Shown: in pieces, positions 21,628 to 63,769 of the stretch
Position numbering within the stretch: the first letter of the stretch is position 1
Layout of the letters: every line of letters starts with the position of its first letter
Assembly: GCA_018830645.1 (NCBI GenBank)
Contig: JAHJSA010000023.1
Location: 7,482-71,481, forward strand
From: Actinomycetota bacterium
GTDB taxonomy: Bacteria; Actinomycetota; Thermoleophilia; RBG-16-64-13
Reading direction: 5' to 3'
Length of the DNA stretch: 64,000 bases
Program-made: the position numbers and the translations under genes
Notes under the pieces: generated by a model
The model's database searches: none
Seen by the model: only the letters and a program-made list of their open reading frames with translations
What the model was told of the DNA's origin: nothing

Positions 21628-21831
21628 GAACTGACCTTCCTGGTGAGTTGTTGGTGCTGCCTACCGGGAAGGGTACCTGCCATTGGCCATAGGAACAACA
21701 CCAAGAGGGCCAACTTTCGACCCAAATCTATTAGCCATTTGGACAAGTGGCAGCGAACGGCTGTGATCGAGCGGTGCTGAGATCGACCGGGGCTCAAGCG
21801 AGCGGCGAGGCGGCACCCACGCCCGAGGTGA

Positions 21832-22707: not shown

Positions 22708-22717
22708 TCGGCTCTCC

Positions 22718-24244: not shown

Positions 24245-24253
24245 GGCAGACCT

Positions 24254-26844: not shown

Positions 26845-26905
26845 CTGCTGAGTCTTGCGCCTTTATGCCGAGCGACACGAGATTACCGAGCACCCCCGAA
26901 GTCGT

Positions 26906-28048: not shown

Positions 28049-28064
28049 GCCTGCTCCTTCTGCG

Positions 28065-28943
28065 TTAGAGAGCCCGCCACGATTCGGGACGCATCACACC
28101 TGTGTCCGGGGCGTCGAGGAACGTGTCGAGCGCGCTAAGCATGCTCTCCTTGTCGGCCGGCAACCTGCCACCCACGGAGACGTAGTTGGAGGCGTGGTTC
28201 GAACGGAACAGCGCGTCAGATACGTTCGTGTGCGCGAGGATCGTGCGGAGCTCACTCAGCATTGACAGAGGATCGGGCACCACGAACTCCCCATTCGCCA
28301 CCCGGCGAGCGAGGGGTGTGCCCTCTACCACCATCAGACTGAGTACGCCGATGAACTGTGGGTCGGTGGCCGAGAGGGCGCGCCCGGTAGCGACGGCGTG
28401 CACCTGCGAGCGTTCCACGCCCGCGAGGCCGAGGATGGCGGTGATGGACATGCTCATGCCGGCGTTGACGGCGCGACGAGAGGCCTCGACCTGCTCCGCG
28501 ACCGTGACGCGCTTGTTGCAGGCTTCGAGGGTGGCGTCATCGCCGGATTCGAGGCCCAAGAAGAGCAGGGTCAGGCCGGCGGCCGCCAACCGGGTCAATT
28601 GCTCCGGGCTCTTCCGCAGCAGCGACTGAGCGGTGGCGTAGGAGCTCACCCGCTCAAGGTGCGGGAGCTCGTCGTGTAGGAGTGAGAGCAGCTCGAGCAG
28701 ACGGCTCTGGGGGAGCATGAGCGCGTCTCCATCGGCTAGGAACACGCGTCGCGCGTGTCGCTTGACCGCCAAGGGAAGACCCCGTACGTCCTCCACGACC
28801 TCCGAGAACGGCCGCACACGAAAGGGCTTCTCCAGGTACGTGGCGCAGAAGGTGCAGCCGTTGTTCGAGCACCCGTAGGTGACTTGAAGGATGAGGCTAT
28901 CTGCTTCACTGGGCGGCCGGATGACGGCGCCTTGGTAGCGCAT
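28065..28943 (-). CDS. Radical SAM domain protein
   Basis: CxxxCxxC motif in LQVTYGCSNNGCTFC; ~292 aa from ATG at 28943 (residue 109 of the track ORF, whose N-terminal extension is unlikely to be real). Confidence 0.7.
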   Translation of the reverse strand: MRYQGAVIRPPSEADSLILQVTYGCSNNGCTFCATYLEKPFRVRPFSEVVEDVRGLPLAVKRHARRVFLADGDALMLPQSRLLELLSLLHDELPHLERVSSYATAQSLLRKSPEQLTRLAAAGLTLLFLGLESGDDATLEACNKRVTVAEQVEASRRAVNAGMSMSITAILGLAGVERSQVHAVATGRALSATDPQFIGVLSLMVVEGTPLARRVANGEFVVPDPLSMLSELRTILAHTNVSDALFRSNHASNYVSVGGRLPADKESMLSALDTFLDAPDTGVMRPESWRAL

Positions 28944-29197
28944 GCGCTGAACGATAGCACAGGGTCGCAGGACATGGTCGCGGGGCAGGTTCGCAGAACA
29001 CAGTCGCAGAAGAGGTTCACCGCTCGGGGGCGATGGCGTTCGGTCGACCGTTCCGCACGCTCCGGCGCGAGGGCGGGAGGCATGCGTCTCCGCGCATGCT
29101 AGGTCGGGCGGGTTCAGTGACGGGGTCATTACATTTGTCCGGCTCCGGTAGGGTAAACTCTGGTAGCAACGATCGAGCTGATCTGGAGTGCGCCGCA

Positions 29198-30265
29198 ATG
29201 GGAGACACATCGTCGATGGACGAGACGGGAGCCGAGCAGGCCGTCGCCACTGAAGCCGACACGGCATGCGCGCTGCCGGGCAACCTTCCGGCGAGTTCGC
29301 CGGCGCCAGGCGCCGGGTCCGCGGGCCGGGACATGGTCGCCACGTACCAGGTGTTCCAGCGGGTGCAGGAGGGCGTGGTCGGCCGGAGCCGCGAGGTACG
29401 CGAGATCTTCGCGGCCATCCTCAGCCGCAAGCACATACTGCTCGAAGGGCCCCCAGGCACCAGTAAGTCGACCATCGTGCGATCGATCGCACGCTCGATG
29501 AACGTGCCCTTCTACTTCATCGAGGGCTCCATCGACCTCACACCCTCGAAGCTCCTCGGCTACTTCAACCCCGGCAAGGTGTTGCAGGACAGTTACCAGC
29601 GCGAGTACTTCGAGATGGGCCCCCTCACTCAGGCCATGGAAGAGGGTGGTGTGCTCTACTTGGAGGAGTTCAATCGCATGAGCTCCGAATCGGCCAACCT
29701 CCTGATCACGCCGATGGAAGAGGGCGTCATCAACATTCCGCGCTACGGCCAGGTCACGGCCCTCGACGGCTTCACCATCATCTGTTCGCAGAACCCCTAC
29801 GACGATGTCGGAACTCTGCAGGTGAGCCGCGCTTTCCTCGATCGGGTGGTGCGCATCCGCATGGACTACCAGTCGGAGGAAGAGGAGATCGAGATCGTCA
29901 AGTTGCGGTCCTGCAACTACGACGACGGGCTGGCCAAGACCGCCGTCCGAGTGACGCGCCTCACCCGCGACACACCTGAGATCAAGCTGGGCGCCTCGGT
30001 CCGCGCGGCCATCGACATCGTGACGATCGTGCAGAACCTCACCCTCCTCTCCGACGACGAGTTGCGTGCCGAAGACCTGGCGGATGCCTGCAAGATGGCC
30101 CTCACGAGCAAGATCTGGCTCTTGGAGACCATCAACGTGACCCCCGAAGAGGTGGTCGACCGCGTGATCGCCCGCGCCCGTCGCGAGCTCGGCGCCGACT
30201 TCTACCTCGGCGCCGACCAGGATAAAAAAAAAGTTTCGCAGAACTCCTGGAGGAGTCGGGGATAG
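29198..30265 (+). CDS. MoxR-family AAA+ ATPase
   Basis: Walker A GPPGTSKST, Walker B LYLEEFNR, sensor residues; start at ATG 29198 (residue 56 of the track ORF); the reading frame continues into the VWA gene if one A is added to the A9 run at 30224..30232. Confidence 0.8.
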   Translation: MGDTSSMDETGAEQAVATEADTACALPGNLPASSPAPGAGSAGRDMVATYQVFQRVQEGVVGRSREVREIFAAILSRKHILLEGPPGTSKSTIVRSIARSMNVPFYFIEGSIDLTPSKLLGYFNPGKVLQDSYQREYFEMGPLTQAMEEGGVLYLEEFNRMSSESANLLITPMEEGVINIPRYGQVTALDGFTIICSQNPYDDVGTLQVSRAFLDRVVRIRMDYQSEEEEIEIVKLRSCNYDDGLAKTAVRVTRLTRDTPEIKLGASVRAAIDIVTIVQNLTLLSDDELRAEDLADACKMALTSKIWLLETINVTPEEVVDRVIARARRELGADFYLGADQDKKKVSQNSWRSRG

Positions 30266-30312
30266 AGCTGCTCAAGCGTCGATTCGACACCGGTGAGATC
30301 ACCGCGTTCGAG

Positions 30313-31119
30313 ATGGCAGAGGCCATCAACCTCGACCCTCAGATGCAGCAGCAGTTCCTCGACGACGAGGAGTTCATAAAGTACTTCGCAAAACTGAACC
30401 ACCTTCTTCGCTCTCGCCTGCGCGAGAAGGCGTTCGTCCTCGCAAAGAGACTGATCTTGAAGGTGGCAAGCCAACTGGTGGGAACCGGAGTGCGCAAGGG
30501 CACCCTTCACCTTCGCCAAGGGACCTTCACCGACGAGATCGACATCGACGCGACCCTCGAGAACCTGGTCACGAACCCACTCGGAGATCTTGAGGAGAAC
30601 CTCGCGATCTGGGACCGCAAGCGAGAGGAGATCGGGTTTGTCATGATGTTCGACCACAGCTACTCCATGCGTGGGCCGAAGATCGTGCTCGCAGCGCTCT
30701 GCATAGCCGCCATCGCAATCTACTTCAAGAAGAACTACGGCGTGGTGGCGTTCAGCACCGATGTGGAGACGGTGAAGACCATCACCGACAAGATACACCA
30801 CGAGACGCTGCTTGATCGCGTCTTCGATCTGCCTATCGAAGGGCTCACCAACATATCGGGCGCCCTTGCCACCGGCCTCGGTCAACTCAAGAGCTACAAC
30901 AAGAAGTTCGGTCTCCTGCTCACCGACGGGGGTTGGACCACCGGCGAAGACCCCATGGCCGTCGCTTCACGGTTCGATCGCCTGAACGTGATCGCCTTTC
31001 CCCCCGCGAATCCCGACAAGGTGCGCCTCATCGCGGAGGCCGGACGTGGTACGTTCCAATTCGTGGACAACGAGGAGGCGATCACCGGCGCGATCGTGAG
31101 AGCCTTGCAGGCGCATTGA
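30313..31119 (+). CDS. von Willebrand factor type A (VWA) domain protein, MoxR partner
   Basis: MIDAS motif DHSYSMRG plus downstream T and D ligands; open frame extends upstream to 30226 with no start codon, suggesting a fusion or frameshift with the MoxR gene. Confidence 0.75.
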   Translation: MAEAINLDPQMQQQFLDDEEFIKYFAKLNHLLRSRLREKAFVLAKRLILKVASQLVGTGVRKGTLHLRQGTFTDEIDIDATLENLVTNPLGDLEENLAIWDRKREEIGFVMMFDHSYSMRGPKIVLAALCIAAIAIYFKKNYGVVAFSTDVETVKTITDKIHHETLLDRVFDLPIEGLTNISGALATGLGQLKSYNKKFGLLLTDGGWTTGEDPMAVASRFDRLNVIAFPPANPDKVRLIAEAGRGTFQFVDNEEAITGAIVRALQAH

Positions 31120-31214
31120 CACGAACGGCGAGCGGCGCCGCCACGGTGATGCATGACGCCGCGTTGGCGCGCACGAGGCCGCAGAGGCGCTGCCCGCGCG
31201 ACGCCACAGCGGCC

Positions 31215-32708
31215 CTATGCCGGCACGCCGGCCCCAGCGATCTCTTTGAGCGCCTCGGCCACCGCAGGCTCCAGCGGGATCGGCGCGTGCGTATCGGCCA
31301 CCTCCCAGGCACGGGCGCGGGCACGGGCCACAGGGTCATCGGTGCCCGGGTCCATCCGTGCCCGCGAAAGCAGCTGAGGCCGCCACATGAGGCGCGCGTG
31401 CCGCATCGAATGCTTGGTGGCGAGGAAGTGCCCTCGGGGACCCACCTGCGCAATCGTTTCGAGCGCCAAGGTATCGTCGTCGACTTGAATGGGGCGCGCC
31501 GTGAAGGTGAGGGCGTTCCACAACTCCACGCCCAGAAGTAGCTCCGCCGGATCGCACACCGTCGCATTCTCGAGGAGACCCGGCCCCACCATCGCGTCGG
31601 GCCTCGCGAGCAGTATCATCGTCCCGGTAAGAGCGTCTTCGAAGGCCGACTGCCAGCCCACCCGAGTCGAGCCGCAGGCCATGCCGCCCATGAGAGATGG
31701 CAGCTTGTAGAAGCGGGCCATAGCAGTGGCGGCATTGGTGACCATGGCTTCCTCCGGTGCTCCACCGGCCATGCGGCCGGTCAACGGGTCGAGGACGCTG
31801 GTCATGCAGCTGTAGAAAGCCCTGGCTCCGGGACAAACCAGCCCCAGCGTCGCCAGGGTGCCGATGATCTCCGCGTTCACGATCACCAGATTCCCGGCGG
31901 GACTCGCCGGAGCAGTTCCACAGGCGAGTGGCATCGACACGATGCCCACGGGCACGCCCGCCTCAGCGAACACGAACGCCGCCTCCAAGGCCTCACCCTC
32001 GTTGGCAAGTGGGCTGATGGAACACTGGAAGTTGGACATCACGGGGCGGCGGCGAAGCTCGTCGGCGCCGCCGGCCACGAGCCGCGCCATCTCCACGGCC
32101 GCGCGCGCCTGGTGGGGCTTGGTGACGGTCATGCACTGCACGTGCTTCCCCGTGTTGGCGAAGGTGGCCTCGAGCTCCCAGAGCGGCTGCCTCTCCACCG
32201 GCCGGTCCAGGGCGCTCACCATCTGCCACGCGAAGGCGATCTCTGGGAGGGCGTCGCAGATGCGGGTCAGAGCCGCCAGATCATCGTAGGTGGAATCCCG
32301 CCACTCCCCCGTGAACCGATCCACCATCAGCATGCCGCACCCGCTCGGGCCAAGGTAGGTGGTACAACCGTCCAGTGCCAAGTCGAAGCGCTCGTCGCGG
32401 GCAGCGAAGACGCAGTCTCGCGACAGGAACGAAAGCCCCTTCTCCACGAGCTCGGCGGACATGCGCACCCGGGTGCCTTCGACGCTCGCCCCGTGTTCAG
32501 CGAGCACCCCCAAGCCCCGCTCCCACGGGATGTCGAGCCCCACAGACCCAAGAACGTCCAAGGTGGCCTGGTGCACGCGGTGCACACCATCTTCGCCGAG
32601 CAGATCCAGCCGCGGCAGGTCGGTCGGCGGCAGGAACGCTCCTGGCTGGGAGCCGCCGGCTGCGCCTGCCGGCGCGGTCGACGGCGGCGGTCGGTAGTCG
32701 TTGCTCAC
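31215..32708 (-). CDS. MttB-superfamily methyltransferase without pyrrolysine (uninterrupted ORF; candidate quaternary-amine/methylated-amine:corrinoid methyltransferase)
   Basis: 497 aa, full-length homologue of the trimethylamine methyltransferase family, but no in-frame TAG at the position where the two neighbouring mttB genes carry it. Confidence 0.8.
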   Translation of the reverse strand: MSNDYRPPPSTAPAGAAGGSQPGAFLPPTDLPRLDLLGEDGVHRVHQATLDVLGSVGLDIPWERGLGVLAEHGASVEGTRVRMSAELVEKGLSFLSRDCVFAARDERFDLALDGCTTYLGPSGCGMLMVDRFTGEWRDSTYDDLAALTRICDALPEIAFAWQMVSALDRPVERQPLWELEATFANTGKHVQCMTVTKPHQARAAVEMARLVAGGADELRRRPVMSNFQCSISPLANEGEALEAAFVFAEAGVPVGIVSMPLACGTAPASPAGNLVIVNAEIIGTLATLGLVCPGARAFYSCMTSVLDPLTGRMAGGAPEEAMVTNAATAMARFYKLPSLMGGMACGSTRVGWQSAFEDALTGTMILLARPDAMVGPGLLENATVCDPAELLLGVELWNALTFTARPIQVDDDTLALETIAQVGPRGHFLATKHSMRHARLMWRPQLLSRARMDPGTDDPVARARARAWEVADTHAPIPLEPAVAEALKEIAGAGVPA

Positions 32709-32751
32709 GCCGTATGTCCTCCTTCGAGTGTGGGGCGATCAGGCCGTTGCA

Positions 32752-34158
32752 CTACAGCTCCGCATTGAGCTTCTTTCGGAGGGTTTCGACGGAGGCTATC
32801 TCCACCCCCAACAGCCTCCCGATGCGCGCCTTGGCCGCCAGGCCTCGGGCGGCGCCCGGCATCGCCGTCACCACGCCGATATCGAGCTCCTCACGCAGTT
32901 CTCGCATGACCACCTCGTCGGAGAGGTCGCTGACGCCGACTCCGAGCTTGCCGGCCACGAACGCTTTCGCCTCTGAGATCCGCATCTTGCGATGGAGTTG
33001 CATCCTGGCGACCAGATCTCCGGCCGCGCGGATGCCCCCCATCCCGGAGGCGAGCACGTGTGCCATGGGCATCCCTACGGGATCGCCCACGCCCACCTAT
33101 AACCCGTCCACGCGCCCGATCTCCACCATGGCCACGCTCGCTCGGGTCACGGCGTCCACCGGCGGGGTCTCGCACATGGGCACTCCCCCCACTCCCATGC
33201 CCACATTCGCGTGTATAGGGATGGAAGCGGCCTCGGAACAGGCCTTGACGAAGGTAACCGCCCGGGCGACGTTCCACGCACACGACCTGCGGGTGTTGGT
33301 GTTGACGACAGGGCCGAACACGGCGGCGCCCGCCTTCTCGACCAACTTCACCTGCTGGTGCGGATAGAGACCGGCCAGCCGCTCTCCCTTGTACGTGACC
33401 TCGCCGTGCATGCCGAGTACGAACTCGGCGGCCATACCCACCTGGATCGACAGGTGCGTGTTCGCGGAGAGCTCCTCGACCGCCAGAAGAGTGGCCAGGA
33501 ACTCGGCATCGCCCGCCGAGGCGGTGGTGTCGAAGTCCAGACCGTCTGCTCCGGCGTCTGCCATCTTCCTACCCACGTACACCATGTCGCGGGTGCAGGC
33601 CTCGGCCGCTGCCAGCTGCGCCGCTCGGGCCTCCTCGATCTTGCCCTCAGGGAGCAGATCAGAGGGGTTGCCGAACGGGCCGTCGGGCCGGGCGTAGGTG
33701 GCCAGGTTCGGCATCGCCCCGTAATACACGGGGATGATGGTGCCGAGTAGCACGCTCTCCATGCATTGCTGCTCGTTGGCGACGATGGGCTTCACGGGTT
33801 TGTACGAGTAGTCCGGGTGGCCGAGTTCGATGGTGTCGAAGCCGAAGGCGCGCTCGAAGAGACGGATGGCCTGTTCTCGCGACACCGGCACCCCGACGCC
33901 GCTGTCTCCCTGCTCGGCGTACAACGAACCCGCCACGCCGTCGTCGCTGAGCACGACCTCACGGCCGGGCTCCACTCCCACGATGCGCCCGGGATAGGCG
34001 AAGAGGTCGAATAGGTGGTCGCGCTCCTGCTCGGTGATGGTAGGGATACGCCCGCGGTCGGCCGCGTCTTCCGTGCCGGCCAGGATGTCGGCACGGACCT
34101 TGTCCGAGGACATCGCCTCAACGCGCCCATCGCCCATGCGCATGCGGTGGCTCGGCAT
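32752..34158 (-). CDS. mtbB: Dimethylamine:corrinoid methyltransferase MtbB, pyrrolysine-containing (in-frame UAG at 33097..33099)
   Basis: Two adjacent in-frame track ORFs (33097..34158 and 32752..33096) separated only by TAG; junction ...[33 protein letters not shown] matches the MtbB Pyl site; N-terminus MRMGDG..GDSGVG is also MtbB-like; ~468 aa in total. Confidence 0.9.
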
Positions 34159-35639
34159 CAGTTTCCTCCTTGGTTCCGGGCCGGACGGCCCAGGTGTTTC
34201 GCGATGACCGCCTCAGCTTCCGGGGGCAACGGCGCTACAGAGTGCTTGGCGAGGATCCTTCGGGCAACGGCGAGCGCCCGAGCGTGGGCGTCCTCACCCC
34301 CGCGCTTCTCCCAGGCGCCCCGCATGCGACGGTCGATCACCTGAGCCTCCGACTGCTCGCGACGAGCCAGTTCCCGGGTATGCCTCTCGCGCAGGAAGTT
34401 GCCATCGGACCCTACTCTCAGAATGGATTCGAGACCGATGGAGGCGACATCGCTGCGGATGCCTTCGAGCACCCGCCGGTTCATGCGTGCGATCTCGTCA
34501 TCCATCACCATCTGACCGAAGTCGAAGGTCAGGCCTAATTCGAGCATCCCCATGCCATAGATCAGGTTGGCCCCTGCCAACGCTGGTAACAGACTGGTGA
34601 GGGTCTTCTCGTGGCCCGCCTGCACGTCGGGTAGTTTGCTGTCTGCCTAACCGCCGGCCACCCAGCAGGGCAGGTAGTAGAACTCACTCATCTCGGCGAC
34701 GGCGGCGGAGATGAGGGCGAGTTCGGGAGCTCCGACGGGCGCAGTGGCGTGGCGCAGGTCGAAGGTGGTGGTGCTGCTGCCGTAGATGACCGGAGCCCCG
34801 GGGCGGGTGAGTTGAGCGAGCGTAAGCGCCGAGAGCACCTCCGCGTTGTGGGTGACCATGGTGCCGGACAGGCTGATCGGACCGGTCGCCCCGGCCATGG
34901 CCATGGAGATGACGTTCGAGGCGATCCCGTGGCGCGCGCACCCCATCATGATCTCCGGGGTGGGCGAGTAGAGGGCCAGGGGACTCGTGGGGCAGGTGTC
35001 GATGGAGAATATGGGGCGCTCGCGCAAGGCTTCAGCCCCGCCGACCACCGCTGCCCCGATCTCGGCGAGTTCATCGATCTGCTCTCCGGTCTCGACGCCC
35101 GCGTGCACGTGCTTCGTGGTATTGCGGAGCGCCGCGACGAAGCCCTCCAGGTAGGCGCTCTCGGAGGGCACGTCGGTGGGCGTCACCGCCATCTCGAAGG
35201 TATCGCACATCTCGAGGGCGTCGCAGAGCCGAGCTATGCGGGCGAGATCGTCCAGGGTGGAGTCCCGGTGCTCCCCCGTCTCGAGATCGTAGACTTTGGT
35301 GCCCTCACCGAAGTTGGTGTAGCCCACCGAACGGCCGCCCATGAGGTAGTCGCGCTCGCCATCCCGCGAGGCCAGGAGGATCGTGCCCGGAGCCGACTCC
35401 AGTGCCTCTTCAACCACGTTCCGGGGGAAGCGGACAATCCGCGTGTGGGTGTCCACGACGCACCCTGCCCCGTCGAGGACATCGAGCGCCTCGTCCACCG
35501 GCACCTTCACACCGGCCGTCTCGAGAACGACCAGGGTGGCCTCATGGATCGCTTCCCGACCCGCGGCGCCCAACACATCGAAGCTGAGCCGCGGTACGCC
35601 CGCTCGCTCCTCATCCCTCAGCTTCTCTCTCCACCCCAT
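34158..35639 (-). CDS. mttB: Trimethylamine:corrinoid methyltransferase MttB, pyrrolysine-containing (in-frame UAG at 34647..34649)
   Basis: Track ORFs 34647..35687 and 34158..34625 share a frame across a single TAG: ...[51 protein letters not shown]; ~493 aa from ATG 35639 (RBS AAGGAAGG), Pyl at ~331 as in MttB. Confidence 0.9.
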
Positions 35640-35644
35640 ATGCC

Positions 35645-36169
35645 TCAGGCCTTCCTTTCCAGAGCGGGATCTTCGGGGACTTCCCACATATAGCTGAACT
35701 TCTCGTTCCCCAGGATGGTGAACACCTCGGTTGAGAGAATGCTCCCGCCCGGCGCGAGCGGGCCGCCGAGGAACTCAAGGAGCTCCTCGCTTCCTCGGAA
35801 CACGGCTTCCACCAGGAGGTTATAACGACCGGTGCAGTACCCCACCCAGCACACCCGGTTGAGTGCGGCGAAGGCGCGGGCGACCTCCCGCAGATCGCCT
35901 GCGACAACATTCACGCCGATCATGACGTTGATGGGATAGCCGGTGGCCGCAGGGTCCAGCAAACCCACGATCTGCATCACTCCGGTTTCGTGCAACCGTT
36001 CGATGCGTTTGCGCACCGTGGGCACGGACACGCCGGTGGCCCGCGCGATCTCCGCGTTCGGCAGGCGTCCGTCGCTCTGCAGGAGGGCGAGGATCTTGCG
36101 GTCCAGTGAATCAAGGTGCTCCGGACGCGGCTCGCTCCTCCGATGCTCGTCCACCAGACCCCCAGTCAA
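35645..36169 (-). CDS. Lrp/AsnC family transcriptional regulator
   Basis: N-terminal HTH (LDRKILALLQSDGRLPNAEIARATGVSVPTVRKRIERL) and C-terminal RAM ligand-binding domain; directly upstream of mttB. Confidence 0.8.
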   Translation of the reverse strand: MTGGLVDEHRRSEPRPEHLDSLDRKILALLQSDGRLPNAEIARATGVSVPTVRKRIERLHETGVMQIVGLLDPAATGYPINVMIGVNVVAGDLREVARAFAALNRVCWVGYCTGRYNLLVEAVFRGSEELLEFLGGPLAPGGSILSTEVFTILGNEKFSYMWEVPEDPALERKA

Positions 36170-36293
36170 GTGAGCAATGACTTCGCCAACGTATCGTTAT
36201 CGCTTCGATAAGTCAATCTCAACATTGATTACCGTTTCGATAAGTACGTCGCCGGAAGGAGCTTCGTATGCCCGCGCGGCGCGGGCATCGGAA

Positions 36294-39497
<3,204 letters not shown>

Positions 39498-47005: not shown

Positions 47006-47284
47006 TTAGACCAGGAGCCCAGTATCGCTCATGCGCTGACGGCCGAACTCGGTAAGGCTGTACTTGAGCAGTATCTTCTCCTTCCCGAAGCTCTTGCTCG
47101 GATCAATGGTCTCCTCGATGGCATCGATGAGCCCCCCCGAGTAGAGGTCCGCAAGGGTGACCCGGTTGTTGCCGTACCAGTACTCGCCCTCGAGACCGCC
47201 GTACTCGGCGTTCAGTAACTCAGCGAGTTCGTAGTCCCACTTGGCTCCCTCGGTCTGCAGGATCTGCAGCAGGCGCCCTTTCAT
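47006..47284 (-). CDS. Hypothetical small soluble protein (~92 aa)
   Basis: ORF from the internal ATG (MKGRLLQILQTEGAKWDYELAELL...); no recognisable motif; lies between the membrane protein gene and the small peptide. Confidence 0.4.
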   Translation of the reverse strand: MKGRLLQILQTEGAKWDYELAELLNAEYGGLEGEYWYGNNRVTLADLYSGGLIDAIEETIDPSKSFGKEKILLKYSLTEFGRQRMSDTGLLV

Positions 47285-47315
47285 GTGTAGCTTCGCCACG
47301 TATCCCCCTCTCAGC

Positions 47316-48395: not shown

Positions 48396-48412
48396 CTATC
48401 GACCCCCTTTCG

Positions 48413-48434
48413 TGCGATGCCTAGCAGCATCGCA
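48413..48434 (-). terminator. Perfect 8-bp GC-rich hairpin (TGCGATGC-n6-GCATCGCA) ~18 nt upstream of the membrane-protein start and downstream of pylC
   Basis: Inverted repeat read directly; no U-tract, so a terminator or RNA-stability/attenuator role cannot be distinguished. Confidence 0.3.
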
Positions 48435-48716: not shown

Positions 48717-49904
48717 TCAACGAGCACCTCCCCCTATCGACCCAGTCCGTACGCTCACCGGGTCAGGCGTCGCCGACAACCCGGAGTCGCGCGCGAGCCG
48801 GCGAACGGCCTCCTCCGCGCGGGCACGTGCGTCTACCGCGTCGACGCCTACGCAGATCATGGTGGCCGACCAGGTCTCTCGCCCCTCGGCACGGTCCGTG
48901 AGCACCTCGTCCGCGCCGAAGGCGTCTTCCAGGAGCCGCAGCGGCCCCGCCGTGCTCATCACGTGTTCCCCGAGAACCTCCAGGCTGCCCATGGAGGCGT
49001 GCACGTGTTGGTAGCAGACTCCACGACCGCCCGGGGGCAGTGAGCCGGGGAGACCGGCGCCACGTGCGATATCCGCGACCAACGCCACCACATTGAGTCC
49101 CGTGGAGTGCAGTACCGCGGTGGGCGTCTGGCTGGGTAGCCGCGCGTCGATCTCGATCAGCCGCGGAACGTCGCCGTCCAACATGACCTCGACGTCCATG
49201 AGACCCACGAGCCCCATGCGTTCGGCAAGACGCACCCCGGCAGCGGACATGGCCTCGAGAGACCCTCCGGCCGCGGTCACCGGAGCGACCACGCGCTTGC
49301 AGTCGTACACGTGGTCGAACTCGAGCAACGTGGGCACCAGAGGCAGCGCCCCATCCGGCGTCCCGATCACCTCCAACGACAGCGAAGGCCCGTCGACGTA
49401 CTGCTGCACGACGACTTCATGACCCGCGGTCTCGAGCCTCTCTCGAGCCGCTTCGAGGTCGCTCTCGGTCCAGACGACGCTCACCCCCTCGCTGCCGCTC
49501 GACCCGCTCGGCTTGACCACCGCGGGGAAGCCGCACTCGGGCCACGGTAGGGGCCGCGGAACATCCAGTTCGGCGAAGAGACGGTCGGAACGAAGCTTCG
49601 AGCAGGAGAGCTCGTAGGAAGGAAGGTGGAAGGCCAGAGGTACACCCCAGGACGGCACGACTTCGCTCAGCCACCGCAGGGTCTTCAGGTCTTCGCAGGC
49701 GGGCAGGATCACGTCGCACGCTCCGAGCACCACCCGCGCTCGTTTCACGTCGGCCGTGACGTCGAACACGTGGCTCTCTGTTGCCAATCCCGAGGCGGGC
49801 GTGGCGGGCGCCCTATCGACGAGGACAACCTCGAATCCAGCCTTGATGCCCAAATAGACCGCCTCGGTCCCTTGTAGACGTCCTCCCACGACGCCCAGGC
49901 GCAT
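48717..49904 (-). CDS. pylC: Pyrrolysine biosynthesis ATP-grasp ligase PylC (3-methylornithine--L-lysine ligase)
   Basis: Start VVGGRLQGTEAVYLGIKAGFEVVLVDR... and the IEIDARLPSQTPT motif match PylC; ATG overlaps the pylB TGA. Confidence 0.9.
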   Translation of the reverse strand: MRLGVVGGRLQGTEAVYLGIKAGFEVVLVDRAPATPASGLATESHVFDVTADVKRARVVLGACDVILPACEDLKTLRWLSEVVPSWGVPLAFHLPSYELSCSKLRSDRLFAELDVPRPLPWPECGFPAVVKPSGSSGSEGVSVVWTESDLEAARERLETAGHEVVVQQYVDGPSLSLEVIGTPDGALPLVPTLLEFDHVYDCKRVVAPVTAAGGSLEAMSAAGVRLAERMGLVGLMDVEVMLDGDVPRLIEIDARLPSQTPTAVLHSTGLNVVALVADIARGAGLPGSLPPGGRGVCYQHVHASMGSLEVLGEHVMSTAGPLRLLEDAFGADEVLTDRAEGRETWSATMICVGVDAVDARARAEEAVRRLARDSGLSATPDPVSVRTGSIGGGAR

Positions 49905-51001
49905 CACCACTGGGCCTGCGCCCTCAACCCCGGAGCCTGCGTCCCGGCGAGCCAGCCTTCGTACTCCGGCAAGGAGGCCACCTTCAACCCGAGGGGAGCG
50001 AGATGCCGCTCCACTCCGGCCACGGTACGGAAGCCCTCATCGATGTCGAGCGTTGACTGTGAGACTCCGGCCAGCCCGCTTGCGGGAGGGATGATGGATG
50101 TGACGACGTTGGCGCCCGCACGCAGGCGGGCCTCCAGACCCCGAAGGCCGTCGATGTCGAGAGAGGCTGGGATCAGGCGATCGGGCATGGTGAGCCGCAT
50201 GGTGGCTAAGGTGACCATCTCGGCCAGCAGGGTGGGCGTGTCGAGGCCGCCCATAGGAGTGCCCTTCTGGGGGACGAAGCCCATCACCCGCACCTGCTGC
50301 ACACCCTGCGCCCTCATGGTGACGAGGGAGCGCGCCCGGTCGGCGGCCGTCTCGCCCACACCCAGAAGGATGCCGTCTTCAGCGTGTAGTCCAGCGCCCA
50401 GGGCCCGGCTCCTCGCGCCGACACGCGCCGCGAAATCCTGCCCCGGCCGAAGCTTGCGGAACAACTGCGGTGAGTGGGTCTCCTGGTAGCAGGCATACCA
50501 GTCGGCCCCCGCCTCGGCGAGCTGCCGCAGCACGGCATCCGGCACCACGCCCGGAGACACCATCACCGGCACCCCTGCCGCTCCTCGGACGTCCGCCACG
50601 AGTTCCACCAGATGGTCGAACCGGCCGGCGTCGTGGATCTCCGGGTCCTCCCCCAGGGTCAGATCCACGAGGTGCACGCCCGAGCCGGCCAAGCCGCAGG
50701 CTATCTCGACCACCTCAGCCGCGGTCTTGCGGTACCGGGGACTCGCGTCGTTGCCCTTGCGGTAGAAGCAGAACGTACAGCGATTGCGGCAATACGTCGA
50801 GAAGTAGACGAAACCGTATAGAAAGATCTTGCGCCCGAAGTAGCGCTCCCTCAGTCTCTGCGCGGTGTCGAAGATGAGAGCGGCCTCATCCGGCTCCTGC
50901 ACTTCGAGCAGCGTCTCGATCTCGGGCACCCGGAGGCGTTCCCCCGCGAGCGCGCGCTCGACGATCGCTTCCACTTCCCGGCGTCGTGGCCGTCCGGTCA
51001 C
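49904..51001 (-). CDS. pylB: Pyrrolysine biosynthesis radical SAM enzyme PylB (3-methylornithine synthase)
   Basis: FVYFSTYCRNRCTFCFY radical SAM cluster motif; RLIPASLDIDGL...AGANVVTSIIPP matches PylB; GTG start at 51001 (residue 179 of the track ORF) preceded by a G-rich RBS. Confidence 0.9.
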   Translation of the reverse strand: MTGRPRRREVEAIVERALAGERLRVPEIETLLEVQEPDEAALIFDTAQRLRERYFGRKIFLYGFVYFSTYCRNRCTFCFYRKGNDASPRYRKTAAEVVEIACGLAGSGVHLVDLTLGEDPEIHDAGRFDHLVELVADVRGAAGVPVMVSPGVVPDAVLRQLAEAGADWYACYQETHSPQLFRKLRPGQDFAARVGARSRALGAGLHAEDGILLGVGETAADRARSLVTMRAQGVQQVRVMGFVPQKGTPMGGLDTPTLLAEMVTLATMRLTMPDRLIPASLDIDGLRGLEARLRAGANVVTSIIPPASGLAGVSQSTLDIDEGFRTVAGVERHLAPLGLKVASLPEYEGWLAGTQAPGLRAQAQW

Positions 51002-51012
51002 CTGCGAACCCC

Positions 51013-51900
51013 CTATTCCTCCGCGACCGGATGCGATCCCGGCCGGGTGCCTTGTACGTTGAGGCGCGCCCCGTCGAGGTACACGAGACTCCTCCCTACC
51101 GGGTGGATACGAGACCCACCCGTCTGCATCATGGCTAGACGCTCGAGGCCGAACCCCCACCCGGCCCACGGACCGTTGACGCCCCACTGCTCGTCGAGTG
51201 GGTGCGGTCCGACGACGCCTGAGGCCACCTCGATGCCGCGCACCTCCACATCGAACGTCGCGCCATATACGCCGGAATCGGTCTCGACGATCTTGTATTG
51301 CAGGCCCAGGGGCCTCATGGCGACATCGGCCAGCATCCGCAGGCGATCGGCGGGGTCGCCGCTCGGCTCGAACTCCACAAGGTTGAGCATGGTGAACTCC
51401 GAGAGGTGGTTCGAGCCCTTCGACTCCTTGCGGAAACAGGGTCCCACTTCGAAGATGCTCACGGGGGGCGGCCATAGCCGTTGGAGGTGACTGAGCAGGT
51501 AGTAGAGGTTCGGTGCCAGCATCGGGCGCAGGCATCGGTCGGTGTCGACCCAGTACACCTGGCGCCAGAGCGGGTGTACTTCACCGATCCCCATCTTCGC
51601 CAGGGCGCCCTTGCTCATCATGAGCGGCGTGGCCACCTCGACGAAACCATCCGCCACCAGCGCCGCGACCAAGACCGACTCCACCGTGCGCAGCACCGGG
51701 CGTCGCCTCTCGGTGCGCAGAGAGTCGAGCCGATCGACGTTCGCCTGGCTGAGTTCCCGATGGTTCCCCTCGTAGCGGGCGTCGCGCTCCTCAGCCGAGT
51801 CGAACGTGTCGGCCAGCGCGGCATCGTCAAGCCCGATCTCGGCTAAGCGCTGCCTCTGCTGCGGCGAGAATCCGAGTGCGATGTCTCCCTGGCCTATCAC
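51013..51900 (-). CDS. pylS: Pyrrolysyl-tRNA synthetase, C-terminal catalytic subunit (PylSc)
   Basis: Class II aaRS motifs conserved with PylS: CLRPMLAPNLY, FEVGPCFRKES, EFTMLNL, GPHPLDEQWG, GFGLERL; GTG start overlaps the pylSn TGA (GTGA). Confidence 0.9.
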   Translation of the reverse strand: MIGQGDIALGFSPQQRQRLAEIGLDDAALADTFDSAEERDARYEGNHRELSQANVDRLDSLRTERRRPVLRTVESVLVAALVADGFVEVATPLMMSKGALAKMGIGEVHPLWRQVYWVDTDRCLRPMLAPNLYYLLSHLQRLWPPPVSIFEVGPCFRKESKGSNHLSEFTMLNLVEFEPSGDPADRLRMLADVAMRPLGLQYKIVETDSGVYGATFDVEVRGIEVASGVVGPHPLDEQWGVNGPWAGWGFGLERLAMMQTGGSRIHPVGRSLVYLDGARLNVQGTRPGSHPVAEE

Positions 51901-52262
51901 ACGAACGAGGTGCTCTCGAACTTCTCGAGCTTCCAGGATGGTATACGGCACCGCGGACACGGCTCGTCGTAGATCTTGTTGCGCAGATGACGGGCGACCC
52001 GACTGTTCCGGGAGTTCCGCATGCGGATGTCATGCCCGCAGTGCGTCTGCAACTCCACGAACCCGCCCCTGAGCTTCACCGAACGGACGCCATGCAACAG
52101 GCCGGTCTTCGACGGCCACAGCTTCACCTTCTCGATCACCCCGTAGGGGGCGGCATGCCGCCGCACCGTGCGCTTCTTCGCGCCGGGGATAGGAGCCAAG
52201 ACCCAGTCGGGCAGCTTCCCGCCTGTCCCAACGTCTCCGTTCGTGGAGCCGACCACGTCCAC
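51897..52262 (-). CDS. pylSn: Pyrrolysyl-tRNA synthetase N-terminal tRNA-binding domain protein (PylSn)
   Basis: 121 aa; LQTHCGHDIRMRNSRNSRVARHLRNKIYDEPCPRCRI closely parallels the Zn-binding region of the Methanosarcina PylS N-terminal domain; GTG start 45 nt downstream of pylT. Confidence 0.85.
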   Translation of the reverse strand: MDVVGSTNGDVGTGGKLPDWVLAPIPGAKKRTVRRHAAPYGVIEKVKLWPSKTGLLHGVRSVKLRGGFVELQTHCGHDIRMRNSRNSRVARHLRNKIYDEPCPRCRIPSWKLEKFESTSFV

Positions 52263-52307: not shown

Positions 52308-52379
52308 TGGAGGAGAGTCCGGGAGTCCAACCCGGCTACGAAGATTTAGAGTCTCCGCGGTCATGCCGACCAACCCTCC
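52308..52379 (-). tRNA. pylT: tRNA-Pyl (CUA anticodon) gene pylT
   Basis: Minus-strand 72-nt sequence GGAGGGTTGGTCGGCATGACCGCGGAGACTCTAAATCTTCGTAGCCGGGTTGGACTCCCGGACTCTCCTCCA folds with a 7-bp acceptor stem, single U8, a 4-bp D stem with 5-nt D loop, a 6-bp anticodon stem, loop CU-CUA-AA, a 3-nt variable loop and a 5-bp T stem. These are the hallmark atypical features of tRNA-Pyl. Confidence 0.85.
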
Positions 52380-52457: not shown

Positions 52458-53486
52458 TTAGACCGCCGCCTCTTCCGCGGCCTCCACCATGGCCCTCAGG
52501 TTCTCGGTCTCCGCCGAAGGCGGCACCGAGCAGCCGGGAGCGATCATGTCGTAGCCATCGGCCAGAGCCTTACGCACGTCGTTCTTCACGTCCTCGGGCG
52601 TGCCGGAGAAGAGCGTCACCACCGCGTCCACACCGCCGATCAGGGCGATGTGCCGGGGGAACCCGCGCAGCACCTCTTTGGCGGCGACGGCATCCACCGA
52701 CGGCTCCACGCTGATCGCGGTCACACCGGTCTCGGCGACCTCCGCCATGATCGGGTTGAGCTTCCCGCAGATGTGCATGATCGTGAGAACGCCGGGGAGG
52801 TTGGCGATCTGCTTCGCCTCATACGGCTGAGCGAGGTTGCGGAAGATGGGCGGGCTGATCACGTCGATCGAGGCCATCATGTCTTCGATGACGATGATGT
52901 CCGCACCCGCGTCCACAAGGGCTTTGCCCAGCATGGTGCCGGCCTGCTCGGCCACTTCCATGAGGGGCACCAGGCTCTCCGGCTTCTTGAAACTCGCCTT
53001 GAGTGCGTCGGTGATGCCGATCAGATTGGCCACGATCGAGAAGGGGCCGACGATGTTGCCCATCACCGCGACATCGTCGCCAACGGCTTCCTTCATCAGC
53101 CGCACGGCCTCGATCAATTCAGGCACGCGTCCGCGGGTGAGGAAGTCGTCGGGAAGAGCGATCTCGTCCCCGGCGTGGAAGGCGTGCACGTCGATACGCG
53201 GGATACCCTCGCGCCCGGCGTACTTGACGGTGCAGCCCAGAGCCTCGCTCTCGACGGTCTGGCAGTACGGGGCACGCACAGCGTCGAAGCCGAGTACGGA
53301 GTGGGCCGCCAGAGCCAGTTTGGCCATCGACTCGGCCTTCTGGTGGGCCTCCGGCCATTCCGCTCCACACGCGTCCATCTGCGCATAGGTCGCCGTCTGG
53401 TTGGCCGAGAAGACCGGTGGACGGTCCACGGGCAAACCGGCAAGCGCTGCTAGTACACGTTCCTTCGAAGTCATCACACCTCTCAC
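52458..53486 (-). CDS. Uroporphyrinogen decarboxylase (URO-D) family methylcorrinoid methyltransferase (MtbA/MtaA/MtqA-like)
   Basis: 342 aa URO-D fold typical of the methylcobamide:CoM / methylcorrinoid:tetrahydrofolate methyltransferases that partner with corrinoid proteins; lies between pylT and mtbB. Confidence 0.8.
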   Translation of the reverse strand: MRGVMTSKERVLAALAGLPVDRPPVFSANQTATYAQMDACGAEWPEAHQKAESMAKLALAAHSVLGFDAVRAPYCQTVESEALGCTVKYAGREGIPRIDVHAFHAGDEIALPDDFLTRGRVPELIEAVRLMKEAVGDDVAVMGNIVGPFSIVANLIGITDALKASFKKPESLVPLMEVAEQAGTMLGKALVDAGADIIVIEDMMASIDVISPPIFRNLAQPYEAKQIANLPGVLTIMHICGKLNPIMAEVAETGVTAISVEPSVDAVAAKEVLRGFPRHIALIGGVDAVVTLFSGTPEDVKNDVRKALADGYDMIAPGCSVPPSAETENLRAMVEAAEEAAV

Positions 53487-54887
53487 CTATCCCATCTTCG
53501 CTTTCAGTCTGTCCACACTGTTGATACTGATACCGAGCAATTCTGCGATACGGATCTTAGCCTCTATCCCCTTGGCGCATCCGGGCACTGAGGTGATCAC
53601 ACCTATGTCGAGGTCTTCGCGCATCTCCCGCATCACCGTGACCTCGGAGAGGTCGGCGACGCTGATCTTCAGCTTGTCGGCCACGTAGGCTTTGGCTTCC
53701 GGTAGGCGCATCCTGCGCGCGAGCTGCATCCGAGCGACCAGGTCTCCGGCCGTACGGATGCCGCCCATACCAGCGGCCACCCCGTGGGCGATGGGCATCC
53801 CGTAGGGATCGCCCACACCCACCTATAATCCGTCGACGCGGGCGATCTCGACCATCGCGACCGAGGCCCGCGAGACACTGTCGATAGGCGGGGTCTCGAA
53901 CACCGGGGAGCCACCCACCCCCATGCCCATGTTCACGTGCACCGGGATGTTGGCCACCGCGGTGACCGCCTTGACGAAGGTGACGGCGCGGGCAAGGTTC
54001 CAGGCCATCGACTTGCTGGTGTTGGTGTTCACGACAGGTCCGAAGATGTCGCCTCCGGCCTTCTCGACGAGACCAACTTGGTGGTGCGGGTAGAGCCCGG
54101 CGAGACGCGTGCCGTCGTACTCGAGCTCGCCGTGGATACCGAGTACGAACTCCCCGGCCATGCCAACCTGGATCGCAAGATTCGGGTGTTTGGCCTTCAG
54201 CTGCTCGACTGCCTGAAGCGAGGCTTTGAAGTCCGCGTCGCCCGCCGCGCCCGTCGTATCGAAGTTCACGCCGTCGGCGCCCACCTCGGCCAGCTTGCCG
54301 CAGATGTAGACGATGTCGCGGGTCGCGTGCTCGACCGCCAGTTCCTGGGCCTCACGCGCCTCCTTGATCTTGCCCATCGGCAGGAGGTCGGAGGGGTTGC
54401 CGAACGGGCCGTCGGGCGCGTAGTAGGTGCCGAGGTTCGGCATGGCTCCGTAGAAGATGGGCACGATGGTGCTGAGCAGGATGTTCTCGAGCGCCTGCTG
54501 CTCCTGGGCGATGATCGGCTTGACCGGCTTCCAGGAGTAGTCCACATGCCCGAGTTCCATGGTATCGGCCGCGAAGGCCCGCTCGTGCACCTGCACGCCC
54601 TGCAACCGGCTCAGCGGGATACCGACCCCGCTGTTGCCTTGGTCGCCGTCGAGGCGCAACGTGCCGATGTCGTGCGTGAGTACGACCTCGTTCCCCGAGT
54701 CGACGCCCACTACGCGCGCATTGCTCTTGAAGAGGTCGAGCAGGAAGTCGATCTCGTCGTCTTTGAGGGGTGGGATGCGGCCGCGATCGGCTGCGTCTGC
54801 GGAGCCGGCGATCAGATCGGCCTTCAGCTCGTCAGCCGTCATATCGATCACGTGCCCGTCCCCCATCCGGGTCGGGTACTTCGTCAT
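53487..54887 (-). CDS. mtbB: Dimethylamine:corrinoid methyltransferase MtbB (second copy), pyrrolysine-containing (in-frame UAG at 53823..53825)
   Basis: Track ORFs 53823..54887 and 53487..53822 abut in frame across TAG: ...[33 protein letters not shown]; N-terminus [24 protein letters not shown] is MtbB-like. Confidence 0.9.
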
Positions 54888-54942: not shown

Positions 54943-55590
54943 CTACCCCTGCACCAACTCGAGGGCCTTCTGCACGGCCTCCTGGGCGTTCTCGGCGTAG
55001 GCGTCGGCGCCGATCTTGTCGGCCCAATACTGAGTGACGACCGCCCCGCCCACCATGGTCTTCACCTGGTCGCGGATGCCCGCCTCCTTCAGCATCTTCT
55101 CCAAGGCCTTCTGCCCGACCATCGTCGTGGTCATGAGGGCCGAGGTACCCACGATCGCGGCCCCCGTCTCCTTGACCTTCTCGACGAACGTGTCCAGGGG
55201 GACGTCGCGGCCGAGGTCCACCACATCGAAGCCGTACACCCGCATCAGGGTCGCCACGATGCCTTTGCCGATGTCGTGCACGTCGCCCTCGATCGTGCCG
55301 ATGACGGCCGTGCCGGCCTTCTTCTCTCTCTGATCCTCGGGAAGCGACGCCTCTAGAATAGCGACGGCCGCAACCATGGCCTCAGAAGCAAGGATCACCT
55401 CCGGCAGGAACATGGTGCCCCGTTCGAAGAGGTCGCCCACGTCGCGCATGCCCGGAGTGAATCCCTCGTTGATCACCTTGAGGGGGTCGAGGCCCAGCTT
55501 CACCGCCTCAGTCGCAATCGCCTTCGCCTCGTCCTCATCGGCCGACACCACAGCCTTGGCTGCGGCTTCGAGCAATTCTTGTTCTGTCAT
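54943..55590 (-). CDS. mtbC: Corrinoid (cobalamin-binding) protein, MtbC-like
   Basis: B12-binding domain with GDVHDIGK (DxHxxG) and the corrinoid cap; upstream of mtbB. Confidence 0.85.
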   Translation of the reverse strand: MTEQELLEAAAKAVVSADEDEAKAIATEAVKLGLDPLKVINEGFTPGMRDVGDLFERGTMFLPEVILASEAMVAAVAILEASLPEDQREKKAGTAVIGTIEGDVHDIGKGIVATLMRVYGFDVVDLGRDVPLDTFVEKVKETGAAIVGTSALMTTTMVGQKALEKMLKEAGIRDQVKTMVGGAVVTQYWADKIGADAYAENAQEAVQKALELVQG

Positions 55591-62707: not shown

Positions 62708-63400
62708 TTGGTCCCGGTCGCTCTTCTCCTCTGGTGGCGCATCAAGCACGCCTACCGCGATGAGCACGTCGGTCGAGAGGGTCTACTCGACGCATTCGTC
62801 GCGGCGCTCCCCGACGCGACCGTCGACAAAGGACCCCAGGGTCTTCCCCGGCTGCGCGGGCGGCTGGACGGAGCTGCACTCCTGGTGAGCCTCCACGCCG
62901 ACACACTCGCCTTGCGTACCTTGCCGACCTTGCGGTTGGAGGCCCGATGGGACCGCCCGCACAATGCGGTGGTCGACGTGATGCTGGATCCGAGTGGCAC
63001 GGAGTACTTCGCCGAAGGCCTCGGCCTCGGGGGGCGTGCAGCCCCCCCCGAAGGCTGGCCGGACACCACGATAGTGCAAGTCTCGGGCATCGAGGCCGTC
63101 CCGATCGTCGAGCGCCTGTCGGCAGTCGATCCCCGCGCCTTCCCTGCACTCAAGCACATCCTGGTTAGCCGGGATGAACTCAGGCTCACGATGAATTGCG
63201 CCCGAGCCGACCGGCAGACCTACCGCGTGTTACGCTCAGCCACGTTCAAACCCGACGCCGTCGGGCCCGTCATCGTGAAGCAGACGATAGATGCCCTCCG
63301 CACGTTGGAAGTGGCGGCCTCAGGCGCGCCCGCCGCCGGCCCGGAGGAGAGCACTGTCACGGCCGCGCCCGCCGCGAACCCGAACGAGAAGGACTTCTAG
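62708..63400 (+). CDS. Hypothetical protein with N-terminal TM segment
   Basis: ORF with coding-like composition; TTG start, no RBS; function unknown. Confidence 0.4.
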   Translation: MVPVALLLWWRIKHAYRDEHVGREGLLDAFVAALPDATVDKGPQGLPRLRGRLDGAALLVSLHADTLALRTLPTLRLEARWDRPHNAVVDVMLDPSGTEYFAEGLGLGGRAAPPEGWPDTTIVQVSGIEAVPIVERLSAVDPRAFPALKHILVSRDELRLTMNCARADRQTYRVLRSATFKPDAVGPVIVKQTIDALRTLEVAASGAPAAGPEESTVTAAPAANPNEKDF

Positions 63401-63769
63401 ATGCTCAAACGCACGCGCCCGCCGGCTGCGAACCAGCCGCCCAAGAAGCCGTATTCAGTGACCCTCGTGACGGTGGCGGCGATGCTGCTACCCGGCTCCG
63501 GTCAGGTGCTCAACGGCCACCCCGTACGCGGTATCACCATGCAGTTCTTCATGATGCTGATGGCGTTCATCACATATCAGGTGACCGACCCGGATATCTC
63601 CTTCGTGGGCAGGATCGCCGGCGGGATCCTCGTGTACCTCGTCTCCGTGCTGGACGCCCGAGGCATGGCGGTGCGGCGGATGCGGGCCTGGGAGCGGGCC
63701 ACGAGCCCCGAGACAGCGGGCGCAGACCCCGAGACCGCAGGATCCGAGAGCGCCGAACCTAGCCCCTGA
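63401..63769 (+). CDS. Hypothetical small membrane protein (122 aa, 2 TM)
   Basis: Hydrophobic helices, Pro/Glu-rich C-terminus; ATG directly follows the upstream stop. Confidence 0.4.
   Translation: MLKRTRPPAANQPPKKPYSVTLVTVAAMLLPGSGQVLNGHPVRGITMQFFMMLMAFITYQVTDPDISFVGRIAGGILVYLVSVLDARGMAVRRMRAWERATSPETAGADPETAGSESAEPSP

Follow-up and report, generated by a model that had tools for sequence, protein, structure and literature searches.

The window analysed here is a stretch of 64 kb from an actinobacterial contig (JAHJSA010000023.1), and the element in question is mtbB copy 1, a gene of the dimethylamine methyltransferase type on its minus strand (32752..34158) with an in-frame UAG at 33097..33099, predicted to encode pyrrolysine (Pyl). 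The complete coding sequence consists of two abutting open reading frames (ORFs). The upstream ORF (33097..34158, minus) begins with an ATG at 34156-34158, lying 6 nucleotides (nt) downstream of a Shine-Dalgarno sequence AGGAGG (34165..34170, minus, read from the sequence), codes for 353 amino acids (aa) and ends in the TAG at 33097-33099; its ATG overlaps the TGA of the upstream mttB gene (TGATG). The downstream ORF (32752..33096, minus) lies in the same frame, runs for 114 codons to 32755 and is closed by a terminal TAG at 32752..32754, the next in-frame TAA or TGA being 84 codons beyond. Joined, the two give 468 codons and a product of 468 aa in which the UAG is codon 354 and the junction reads EIGRVDGL-[TAG]-VGVGDP.

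Since the window has a GC content of 65% and several pairs of unrelated neighbour genes are likewise in frame with only one TAG between them (e.g. 62708/63401 and 24254/22718), abutting ORFs alone are weak evidence. It is the homology across the junction, namely a single PF09505 stretch and a PYLIS_2 match beginning on the TAG, that takes mtbB copy 1 beyond chance. The 468-aa protein with the TAG masked was matched by PF09505 (Dimeth_Pyl) in one stretch spanning the TAG, residues 4-462 on profile positions 3-462 of 463 (687.8 bits, E=8e-207, cut-off 25), and the NCBIfam equivalog TIGR02368 scored 588.7 bits on the joined product (cut-off 369.1). Alignments by tblastn likewise extended over the full length and across the TAG in the genome loci L001-L014. 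Judged from these sequence comparisons, 32752-34158 (minus) is an intact, full-length member of the MtbB family.

A first-pass annotation, made from the letters alone, had described two abutting in-frame ORFs of 353 and 114 aa split by a TAG, a VDGL-[UAG]-VGVGDP junction and a total of ~468 aa as expected of MtbB. Both ORFs, their frame and the TAG are confirmed, the same junction was read, and the joined length of 468 aa with near-complete PF09505 coverage agrees with the family; the minus strand and the fact that the terminator is itself a TAG were absent from that description.

The in-frame UAG and the frame beyond it

Global alignment placed the TAG codon 354 at residue 356 of the full-length homologue P0018 (VDGI-Q-IGVGDP), in which the TAG was called as Q by the gene caller; residue 356 is presumably also the Pyl position of Methanosarcina barkeri MtbB1. 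The same boundary can be seen in a second mtbB gene of the window, copy 2 (53487..54887, minus; 466 codons, TAG at 53823-53825; 63% identical to copy 1), where TIGR02368 and PF09505 match both pieces, the upstream piece covering TIGR02368 positions 3-355 and the downstream piece Pfam positions 355-462. Protein homologues were taken as the best 120 listed from a 5.8-billion-protein database: 75 of these 120 are exactly 353 aa long and most others are near that length, which indicates that gene callers cut at or near the same codon. Only two of them are full-length (468 aa), both with the TAG called as Q (VDGI-Q-IGVGDP and VDGF-Q-VGVGDP).

A scan of species-representative genomes yielded 15 loci, comprising 11 from Actinomycetota (mostly Thermoleophilia or Gaiellales), 3 from Desulfobacterales and 1 from a Thermoplasmata archaeon. 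The codon corresponding to 354 is TAG in all 15 and never TGA or TAA, and the frame stays open for 111-118 codons after it in each of the 14 loci that reach past the TAG. The alignment to P0018, the profile boundary at 355 and these 15 loci bear out the initial proposal that the TAG matches the Pyl position of MtbB. In an AlphaFold model of P0018 (per-residue confidence, pLDDT, 83.8; predicted template-modelling score, pTM, 0.88) the Pyl column falls within beta-strand 354-357, followed by helices up to residue 467 at the C-terminus. A sequence search of the PDB with the joined mtbB protein gave no relative at E<=0.01, so there is no MtbB structure on which the Pyl site can be mapped, and Foldseek comparison of the P0018 model with the PDB returned only generic TIM barrels at template-modelling scores of 0.2-0.3, values so low that the fold assignment is weak.

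Comparison of copy 1 with the orthologue in L001 gave 21 synonymous and 11 non-synonymous changes after the TAG, and with that in L002 24 and 17, respectively; the same synonymous excess is found in the part upstream of the TAG (114 vs 34). By these substitution counts the frame downstream of the TAG is under purifying selection. Both orthologues stop at the same residue as copy 1, but with TGA; thus the C-terminus ...KKLNAEL of copy 1 aligns with ...AKLEAEL of L002, where TGA follows.

These data bear on the possibility that the TAG is a nonsense mutation, the locus being a pseudogene or the source of a truncated 353-residue enzyme with a decaying downstream frame. Such a reading could appeal to the failure to find pylD, discussed below, and to the frequency of TAG as a genuine stop in the window. 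However, the same TAG occurs across phyla, the downstream frame is open in every locus extending far enough and shows the synonymous excess, the two divergent paralogues of the window both retain the TAG, and in the predicted model the TAG site lies inside a beta-strand with helices continuing to the C-terminus, so that we regard it as extremely unlikely.

The public annotation splits mtbB copy 1 into a 353-aa protein and a 104-aa ORF starting from an internal ATG, a split that is a gene-caller artefact. Taken at face value, it would correspond to a split gene: translation would genuinely stop at the TAG, the 114-codon piece would be initiated separately, at the GTG adjoining the TAG or at one of the ATGs 9 and 11 codons on, and the two polypeptides would assemble. 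The presence of that GTG and a weak AGGGA 5 nt before the second ATG are in line with it. Against it, no GGAGG-type Shine-Dalgarno site lies ahead of the GTG in copy 1, and the first codon after the TAG is ATT or ATC (Ile, not a start) in the Desulfobacterales loci L012-L014 and in P0018, so this position does not keep a start codon. All relatives keep the first ten codons beyond the TAG as protein, and the stretch from there up to the ATGs (VG.GDP.GM), being conserved in this way, is translated. A mere split would need no exclusive use of TAG at this position, and a Pyl system co-occurs. Independent translation of the 114-codon piece appears unlikely from this pattern of conservation, and the split-gene explanation as a whole very unlikely; the check for a ribosome-binding site and start proper to the downstream segment, which the first-pass annotation had proposed, thus came out in favour of one gene.

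Immediately after the UAG lies a PYLIS_2-type mRNA element (33000..33099, minus). Rfam RF02509, 'Pyrrolysine insertion sequence mtbB', matched it over model positions 1-100 with its first base on the UAG (91.4 bits, gathering score 36, E=3.9e-21), and each of the other four TAG-interrupted methyltransferase genes in the window matches the PYLIS family of its own type. Both hairpins of RF02509 can be formed in the copy 1 sequence, hairpin 1 at ~+7 to +38 and hairpin 2 at ~+73 to +92 counted from the U of the UAG. The region folds better than its shuffles (z = -4.2), and when the Rfam structure was laid on 16 sequences 81% of cells were paired, as against 30-44% in slid controls. Columns 81/96, two third-codon positions, covary cleanly (GC in 6, CG in 5, UA in 3 and UG in 2 sequences, none broken). 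PYLIS has been reported to be dispensable for Pyl insertion, its only effect being a higher yield (PMC3639795).

Predicted pyrrolysine decoding and the use of TAG

The window also holds genes for Pyl synthesis and decoding, all on the minus strand. A tRNA-Pyl(CUA) gene, pylT (52308..52379), was found by ARAGORN and compared with those of L020, L022 and L031; it folds into a cloverleaf in which the D loop has 5 nt, the anticodon stem is long and the variable loop measures 2-3 nt. Its 7-bp acceptor stem is followed by U-CCA, an apparent U73 discriminator with encoded CCA. The relative L020 shares the U73 (3504-3575), while the more distant L022 and L031 carry the usual G73; U73 tRNA-Pyl has been listed in only three bacteria (PMC9630628). 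The PylRS N-terminal subunit is encoded by pylSn (51897..52262; TIGR03912, 101.5 bits, cut-off 51) and the catalytic subunit by pylSc (51013..51960, start codon uncertain; TIGR02367, 283.6 bits, cut-off 178). They are followed by the methylornithine synthase gene pylB (49904..~50977; TIGR03910, 438 bits, cut-off 348, on residues 187-529 of ORF 49904..51535) and by pylC for 3-methylornithine--lysine ligase (48717..49910; TIGR03909, 311.7 bits, cut-off 248). The gene order is pylT-Sn-Sc-B-C, with pylSn directly upstream of pylSc and a 64-nt overlap of the two ORFs, which are in different frames. In bacteria the order is usually pylT-Sc-B-C-D-Sn, and the arrangement seen here resembles the fused archaeal gene in split form.

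Taken together, we consider it highly probable that 32752-34158 (minus) is one gene, mtbB, for a 468-residue dimethylamine:corrinoid methyltransferase, with UAG codon 354 predicted to be translated as pyrrolysine. The pyl genes of the window would supply Pyl-tRNA(CUA), with pylB and pylC providing the first two steps of Pyl synthesis and pylSn and pylSc charging pylT. Pyl-tRNA(CUA) would then compete with release factor 1 at UAG-354 and, where it prevails, the ribosome would proceed through the last 114 codons, read-through possibly being favoured by the two conserved PYLIS_2 hairpins, by analogy with mtmB. From what is known of the family, the MtbB product would use Pyl to bind dimethylamine and methylate the Co(I) corrinoid of an MtbC-type protein, from which an MtbA-family enzyme would hand the methyl group on. 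The acceptor is most probably tetrahydrofolate and not coenzyme M, given an actinobacterial host with no methanogenesis genes in view. Pyl decoding would probably be switched on only with methylamines present, as described for Pyl-using bacteria, TAG being a common ordinary stop in this genome.

Several observations weigh against this interpretation. Firstly, no TIGR03911 match to pylD was obtained among the scanned ORFs of the 64-kb window, and the gene table of the next 16 kb of the source contig lists neither a Pyl-related Pfam family nor pylD, leaving the last step of Pyl biosynthesis unaccounted for. Secondly, ~20 of ~49 ordinary genes of the window, mtbB included, end in TAG without nearby back-up stops, a background in which unrestricted Pyl decoding would be costly. 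Thirdly, copy 1 has no adjacent corrinoid-protein gene. Lastly, the covariation in PYLIS_2 offers modest support, with double changes at 3 of 18 pairs in a region also under coding constraint; the PYLIS_2 data as a whole are compatible with a structured element, at a strength that is modest and confounded by that constraint.

As regards pylD, the PylD model was confirmed on L022 and L031 (234 and 176 bits), and tblastn with these two confirmed PylD sequences detected no pylD in the window, in the 16 kb beyond it on the contig or in L020 (best E=1.8 across the window, L016, L018 and L020). After pylC the window has 320 nt (48396-48716) with no family match and then an EamA-type transporter gene. 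A pylD remnant in these 320 nt was considered and rejected: there was no hidden Markov model match, and the sole tblastn match (E=3.2, in the pylC frame) was not significant. The closest clusters, L020, L025 and L026, read mtbA-pylT-pylSn-pylSc-pylB-pylC-mttC-mttB, again without pylD, while L027 ends inside pylC; as the same pylD-less order recurs in the former three, its absence from the cluster is a feature of the clade and not a local deletion. Elsewhere, among 80 metagenome loci with pylC, 59 have pylD next to it, and many of the others are short contigs. Between pylC and mttC the window contains a 127-aa ORF without a family match (47006-47389, minus) and the EamA-type transporter (47316-48395, minus), and mttC directly follows pylC in L020, L025 and L026.

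The missing pylD could indicate read-through of the UAG with a residue other than pyrrolysine, be it an intermediate, another lysine derivative or an ordinary amino acid brought by a near-cognate tRNA. The clade-wide absence of pylD from the cluster (window, L020, L025, L026), contrasting with its position beside pylC in more distant relatives, and the unusual U73 tRNA-Pyl of the clade would fit such a model. Yet pylB, pylC and pylS are intact with equivalog-level scores, Pyl is needed for catalysis in this enzyme class (PMC8318568), and five Pyl-type methyltransferase genes are maintained under selection, from which it follows that pylD most probably lies elsewhere in the genome. With 80 kb of the genome covered, it may simply be located outside that part, and non-Pyl read-through seems highly improbable.

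The count of stop codons was based on a gene list of the window drawn up from GC content at third codon positions (GC3), amounting to ~49 ordinary genes. Their stops are TAG in ~20 (about 40%), TGA in ~23 and TAA in 6. Examples of TAG-ended genes are those at 32752, 53487, 44603, 57454, 54943, 46107, 51013, 36294 and 15634, all on the minus strand, and the next TAA or TGA follows the TAG after 0 to 993 codons (median ~41). TAG also closes the Pyl-enzyme, corrinoid and pylSc genes, and there is no sign of TAG avoidance. Pyl-using bacteria are known to cope by regulation and not by avoiding TAG (PMC3941956).

According to a preprint, some archaea have a code in which TAG is fully reassigned to sense, a 'Pyl code' (10.1101/2024.09.30.615893). 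Were this to hold here, the mtbB TAG would be merely one of many. However, the ~20 TAG-ended genes end just where their homologues or the ORF structure end, as in mtbB itself, whose C-terminus coincides with that of the TGA-ended L002, and in the genes for CPSase, PolA and ribosomal protein S1; were these TAGs sense codons, genes would be fused or become tens to hundreds of codons longer. We assign next to no probability to such a code in this genome.

Four codons after the terminal TAG of mtbB copy 2 (53474-53489, minus), the start of the MtbA-family gene follows in frame (TAG GTG AGA GGT GTG ATG). Read-through at that TAG could give an MtbB-MtbA fusion, an arrangement that may be due to chance (one in three). 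Programmed fusions across terminal TAGs, considered for mtbB2 to mtbA and three other pairs, were rejected, 4 of 20 being what chance at one in three gives.

The five Pyl-coding TAGs of the window (33097, 53823, 34647, 45077 and 58234, minus) all have T at -1 and G at +4 (TTA-TAG-G or GGT-TAG-G); the +4 base is G at only 7 of 20 terminal TAGs.

If Pyl decoding is active here, one and the same mRNA would have to read through UAG-354 and stop at UAG-469, which would point to context-dependent discrimination. A more far-reaching proposal would be an under-described Thermoleophilia-type clade with a distinct Pyl system, marked by U73 tRNA-Pyl, pylSn upstream of pylSc, no clustered pylD and context-dependent discrimination of UAG; we rate it as unlikely. 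If it were true, PYLIS-type hairpins and the shared T-UAG-G context would be candidate signals, and the long-open question of PYLIS function would become directly testable. The alternative, pure competition combined with regulation, needs no such signal.

Neighbouring methylamine genes and the host

The close linkage of mtbB copy 1 to mttB and to a non-Pyl MttB homologue, remarked on at first pass, is upheld by the neighbouring genes, with a TAG-interrupted mttB upstream and an uninterrupted MttB-family gene downstream. The Pyl-type trimethylamine methyltransferase gene mttB (34158..35687, minus; start codon uncertain) has its TAG at 34647-34649, both pieces being matched by TIGR02369 and PF06253, and contains a PYLIS_3 element (34550-34649, minus; Rfam, 85.4 bits). 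The MttB-superfamily homologue without Pyl (31215..32708, minus) lies 43 nt downstream of mtbB; PF06253 scored 228 bits on it and TIGR02369 350 bits, below the cut-off of 525, and Ala occupies its Pyl column (GGM-A-CGS). L001 and L002, although otherwise syntenic, lack this homologue, and in both mtbB is closed by TGA instead of TAG.

A gene for an AsnC/Lrp-type regulator (35645..36169, minus; NCBIfam AsnC/Lrp matches) lies directly upstream of the mttB-mtbB operon and is syntenic in L001; regulator genes of the AsnC/Lrp and TetR types flank the operons. A scan of 31000-36400 for sigma-70 promoters and terminators gave nothing above chance. The AT-richer intergenic region upstream of the regulator (36180-36290, minus), with its repeated TTATCG...CGATAA motifs, is a possible operator or promoter of the mttB-mtbB operon.

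The methylamine set of the window comprises mtmB, two mtbB and two mttB genes, corrinoid proteins, transporters and the pyl genes. The PYLIS_2 element of mtbB copy 2 spans 53726-53825 (minus; Rfam, 92 bits), the second Pyl-type gene mttB2 has its TAG at 45077 (minus) with a PYLIS_3 match, and the Pyl-type mtmB has its TAG at 58234 (minus) with a PYLIS_1 match. An mtbC-like gene for a cognate corrinoid protein (54943..55590, minus; TIGR02370, 259 bits, cut-off 215) and a gene for an MtbA/MtaA-family methylcobamide methyltransferase of the URO-D fold (52458..53486, minus; NF004889, 323 bits, cut-off 244; PF01208, 244 bits) both adjoin mtbB copy 2, some ~20 kb from copy 1 in the same window. Just beyond the right end of the window, the source contig (L018) carries another non-Pyl MttB gene and a third Pyl-type mttB. 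A sixth Pyl gene within the window, suggested by 62708..63769 (plus; 230 aa, TAG, 122 aa), was rejected: neither piece has a family match, the second starts with Met right after the TAG, and the pieces resemble two small membrane proteins.

A further gene block (20296-31119) adjoins the operon. It includes genes for a MoxR-type AAA ATPase (29033-30265, plus) and a VWA protein (30313-31119, plus), which are syntenic with mtbB in L001 and L002, together with a radical SAM protein (28065-29267, minus), a DUF8230 protein (26906-28048, minus), an HdrB/HdrC-like CCG-ferredoxin fusion (25492-26844, minus), split glutamate-synthase-like subunits (GATase_2, 24254-25495; Fer4+Glu_synthase, 22718-24244; GXGXG, 21832-22707) and a GlnA-type ligase (20296-21627). 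The block could be involved in assimilating ammonia following demethylation, or in a route of the N-methylglutamate type.

The host is a soil-type bacterium of the Thermoleophilia group (Actinomycetota), neither an archaeon nor a methanogen. In ENA the window is matched by contig ERZ27247117:k141_60652 (218 kb). The window encodes bacterial-type LeuRS, UvrB, PolA, ribosomal protein S1 and a lytic transglycosylase, and the nearest mtbB loci belong to metagenome-assembled genomes of Actinomycetes and Thermoleophilia at 90%, 88% and 77% identity. Close relatives are carried by no fewer than 11 actinobacterial genomes at species level. Searching the literature for Pyl in Thermoleophilia or Gaiellales brought up nothing of relevance, and a 2022 survey counted PylRS in only two Actinobacteria (PMC9630628).

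With the UAG read as Pyl, annotation of the locus regains a complete enzyme that is split into 353 + 104 aa in public records, and soil and wetland Thermoleophilia gain a full methylamine toolkit, which suggests a non-methanogenic, Pyl-dependent methylamine sink in soils.

Comparison with known systems

An in-frame UAG is the rule for mtbB, and as of 2014 the gene was almost exclusive to Methanosarcinales (PMC3941956). The MtbB1-3 proteins of Methanosarcina barkeri, M. mazei and M. acetivorans are dimethylamine:corrinoid methyltransferases with Pyl-356 (Paul, Ferguson & Krzycki 2000, cited in PMC3941956). The gene studied here is like them in its TIGR02368/PF09505 family, its length (~467 aa in MtbB1-3), the single UAG in the VDG[IL]-O-[IV]GVGDP column, a downstream PYLIS_2-type RNA and linkage to mttB, corrinoid proteins, an MtbA-type enzyme and pyl genes. 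It differs in sequence, copy 1 being ~54% identical to the Methanosarcina-like P0018, and in having a high-GC actinobacterial host, a TAG as terminal stop and a PylRS split into Sn and Sc. The PYLIS_2 family to which its RNA element belongs (RF02509) was derived from Theil Have et al. 2013 (PMC3639795), and the likeness is that of a full match (model positions 1-100, 91 bits) that partly reflects conserved coding sequence.

Among bacteria, Pyl-containing mtbB has been described in Deltaproteobacteria, namely marine Desulfobacterales (Kivenson et al. 2021, PMC8318568). These genes and the Firmicutes homologues (Emergencia, Anaerotruncus) share with the present one a bacterial host, the UAG at the same column (L012-L014) and the co-occurrence of several mttB copies with a pyl cassette; their identity to it is 55-57%, and they belong to another phylum. 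Elsewhere, pylD adjoins pylC in many Pyl clusters, and L022 and L031 have G73 tRNA-Pyl; the clade of the window has neither.

Conditional expansion of the genetic code has been described for Acetohalobium arabaticum (Prat et al. 2012), here as recounted in PMC3941956. It resembles the present case in being a bacterium in which TAG still serves as a normal stop, with Pyl decoding thought to be limited to growth on methylamines, and it differs in phylum. By analogy, restricted Pyl decoding of this type is likely to be the solution here as well. Overall, the mechanism of the mtbB gene itself is textbook, its only unusual point being an actinobacterial rather than a methanogen host. The remaining interest lies in the lineage, the U73 tRNA-Pyl, the adjacency of pylSn and pylSc, the lack of a clustered pylD and the high frequency of TAG stops, and the identity of the feature is altered by none of these.

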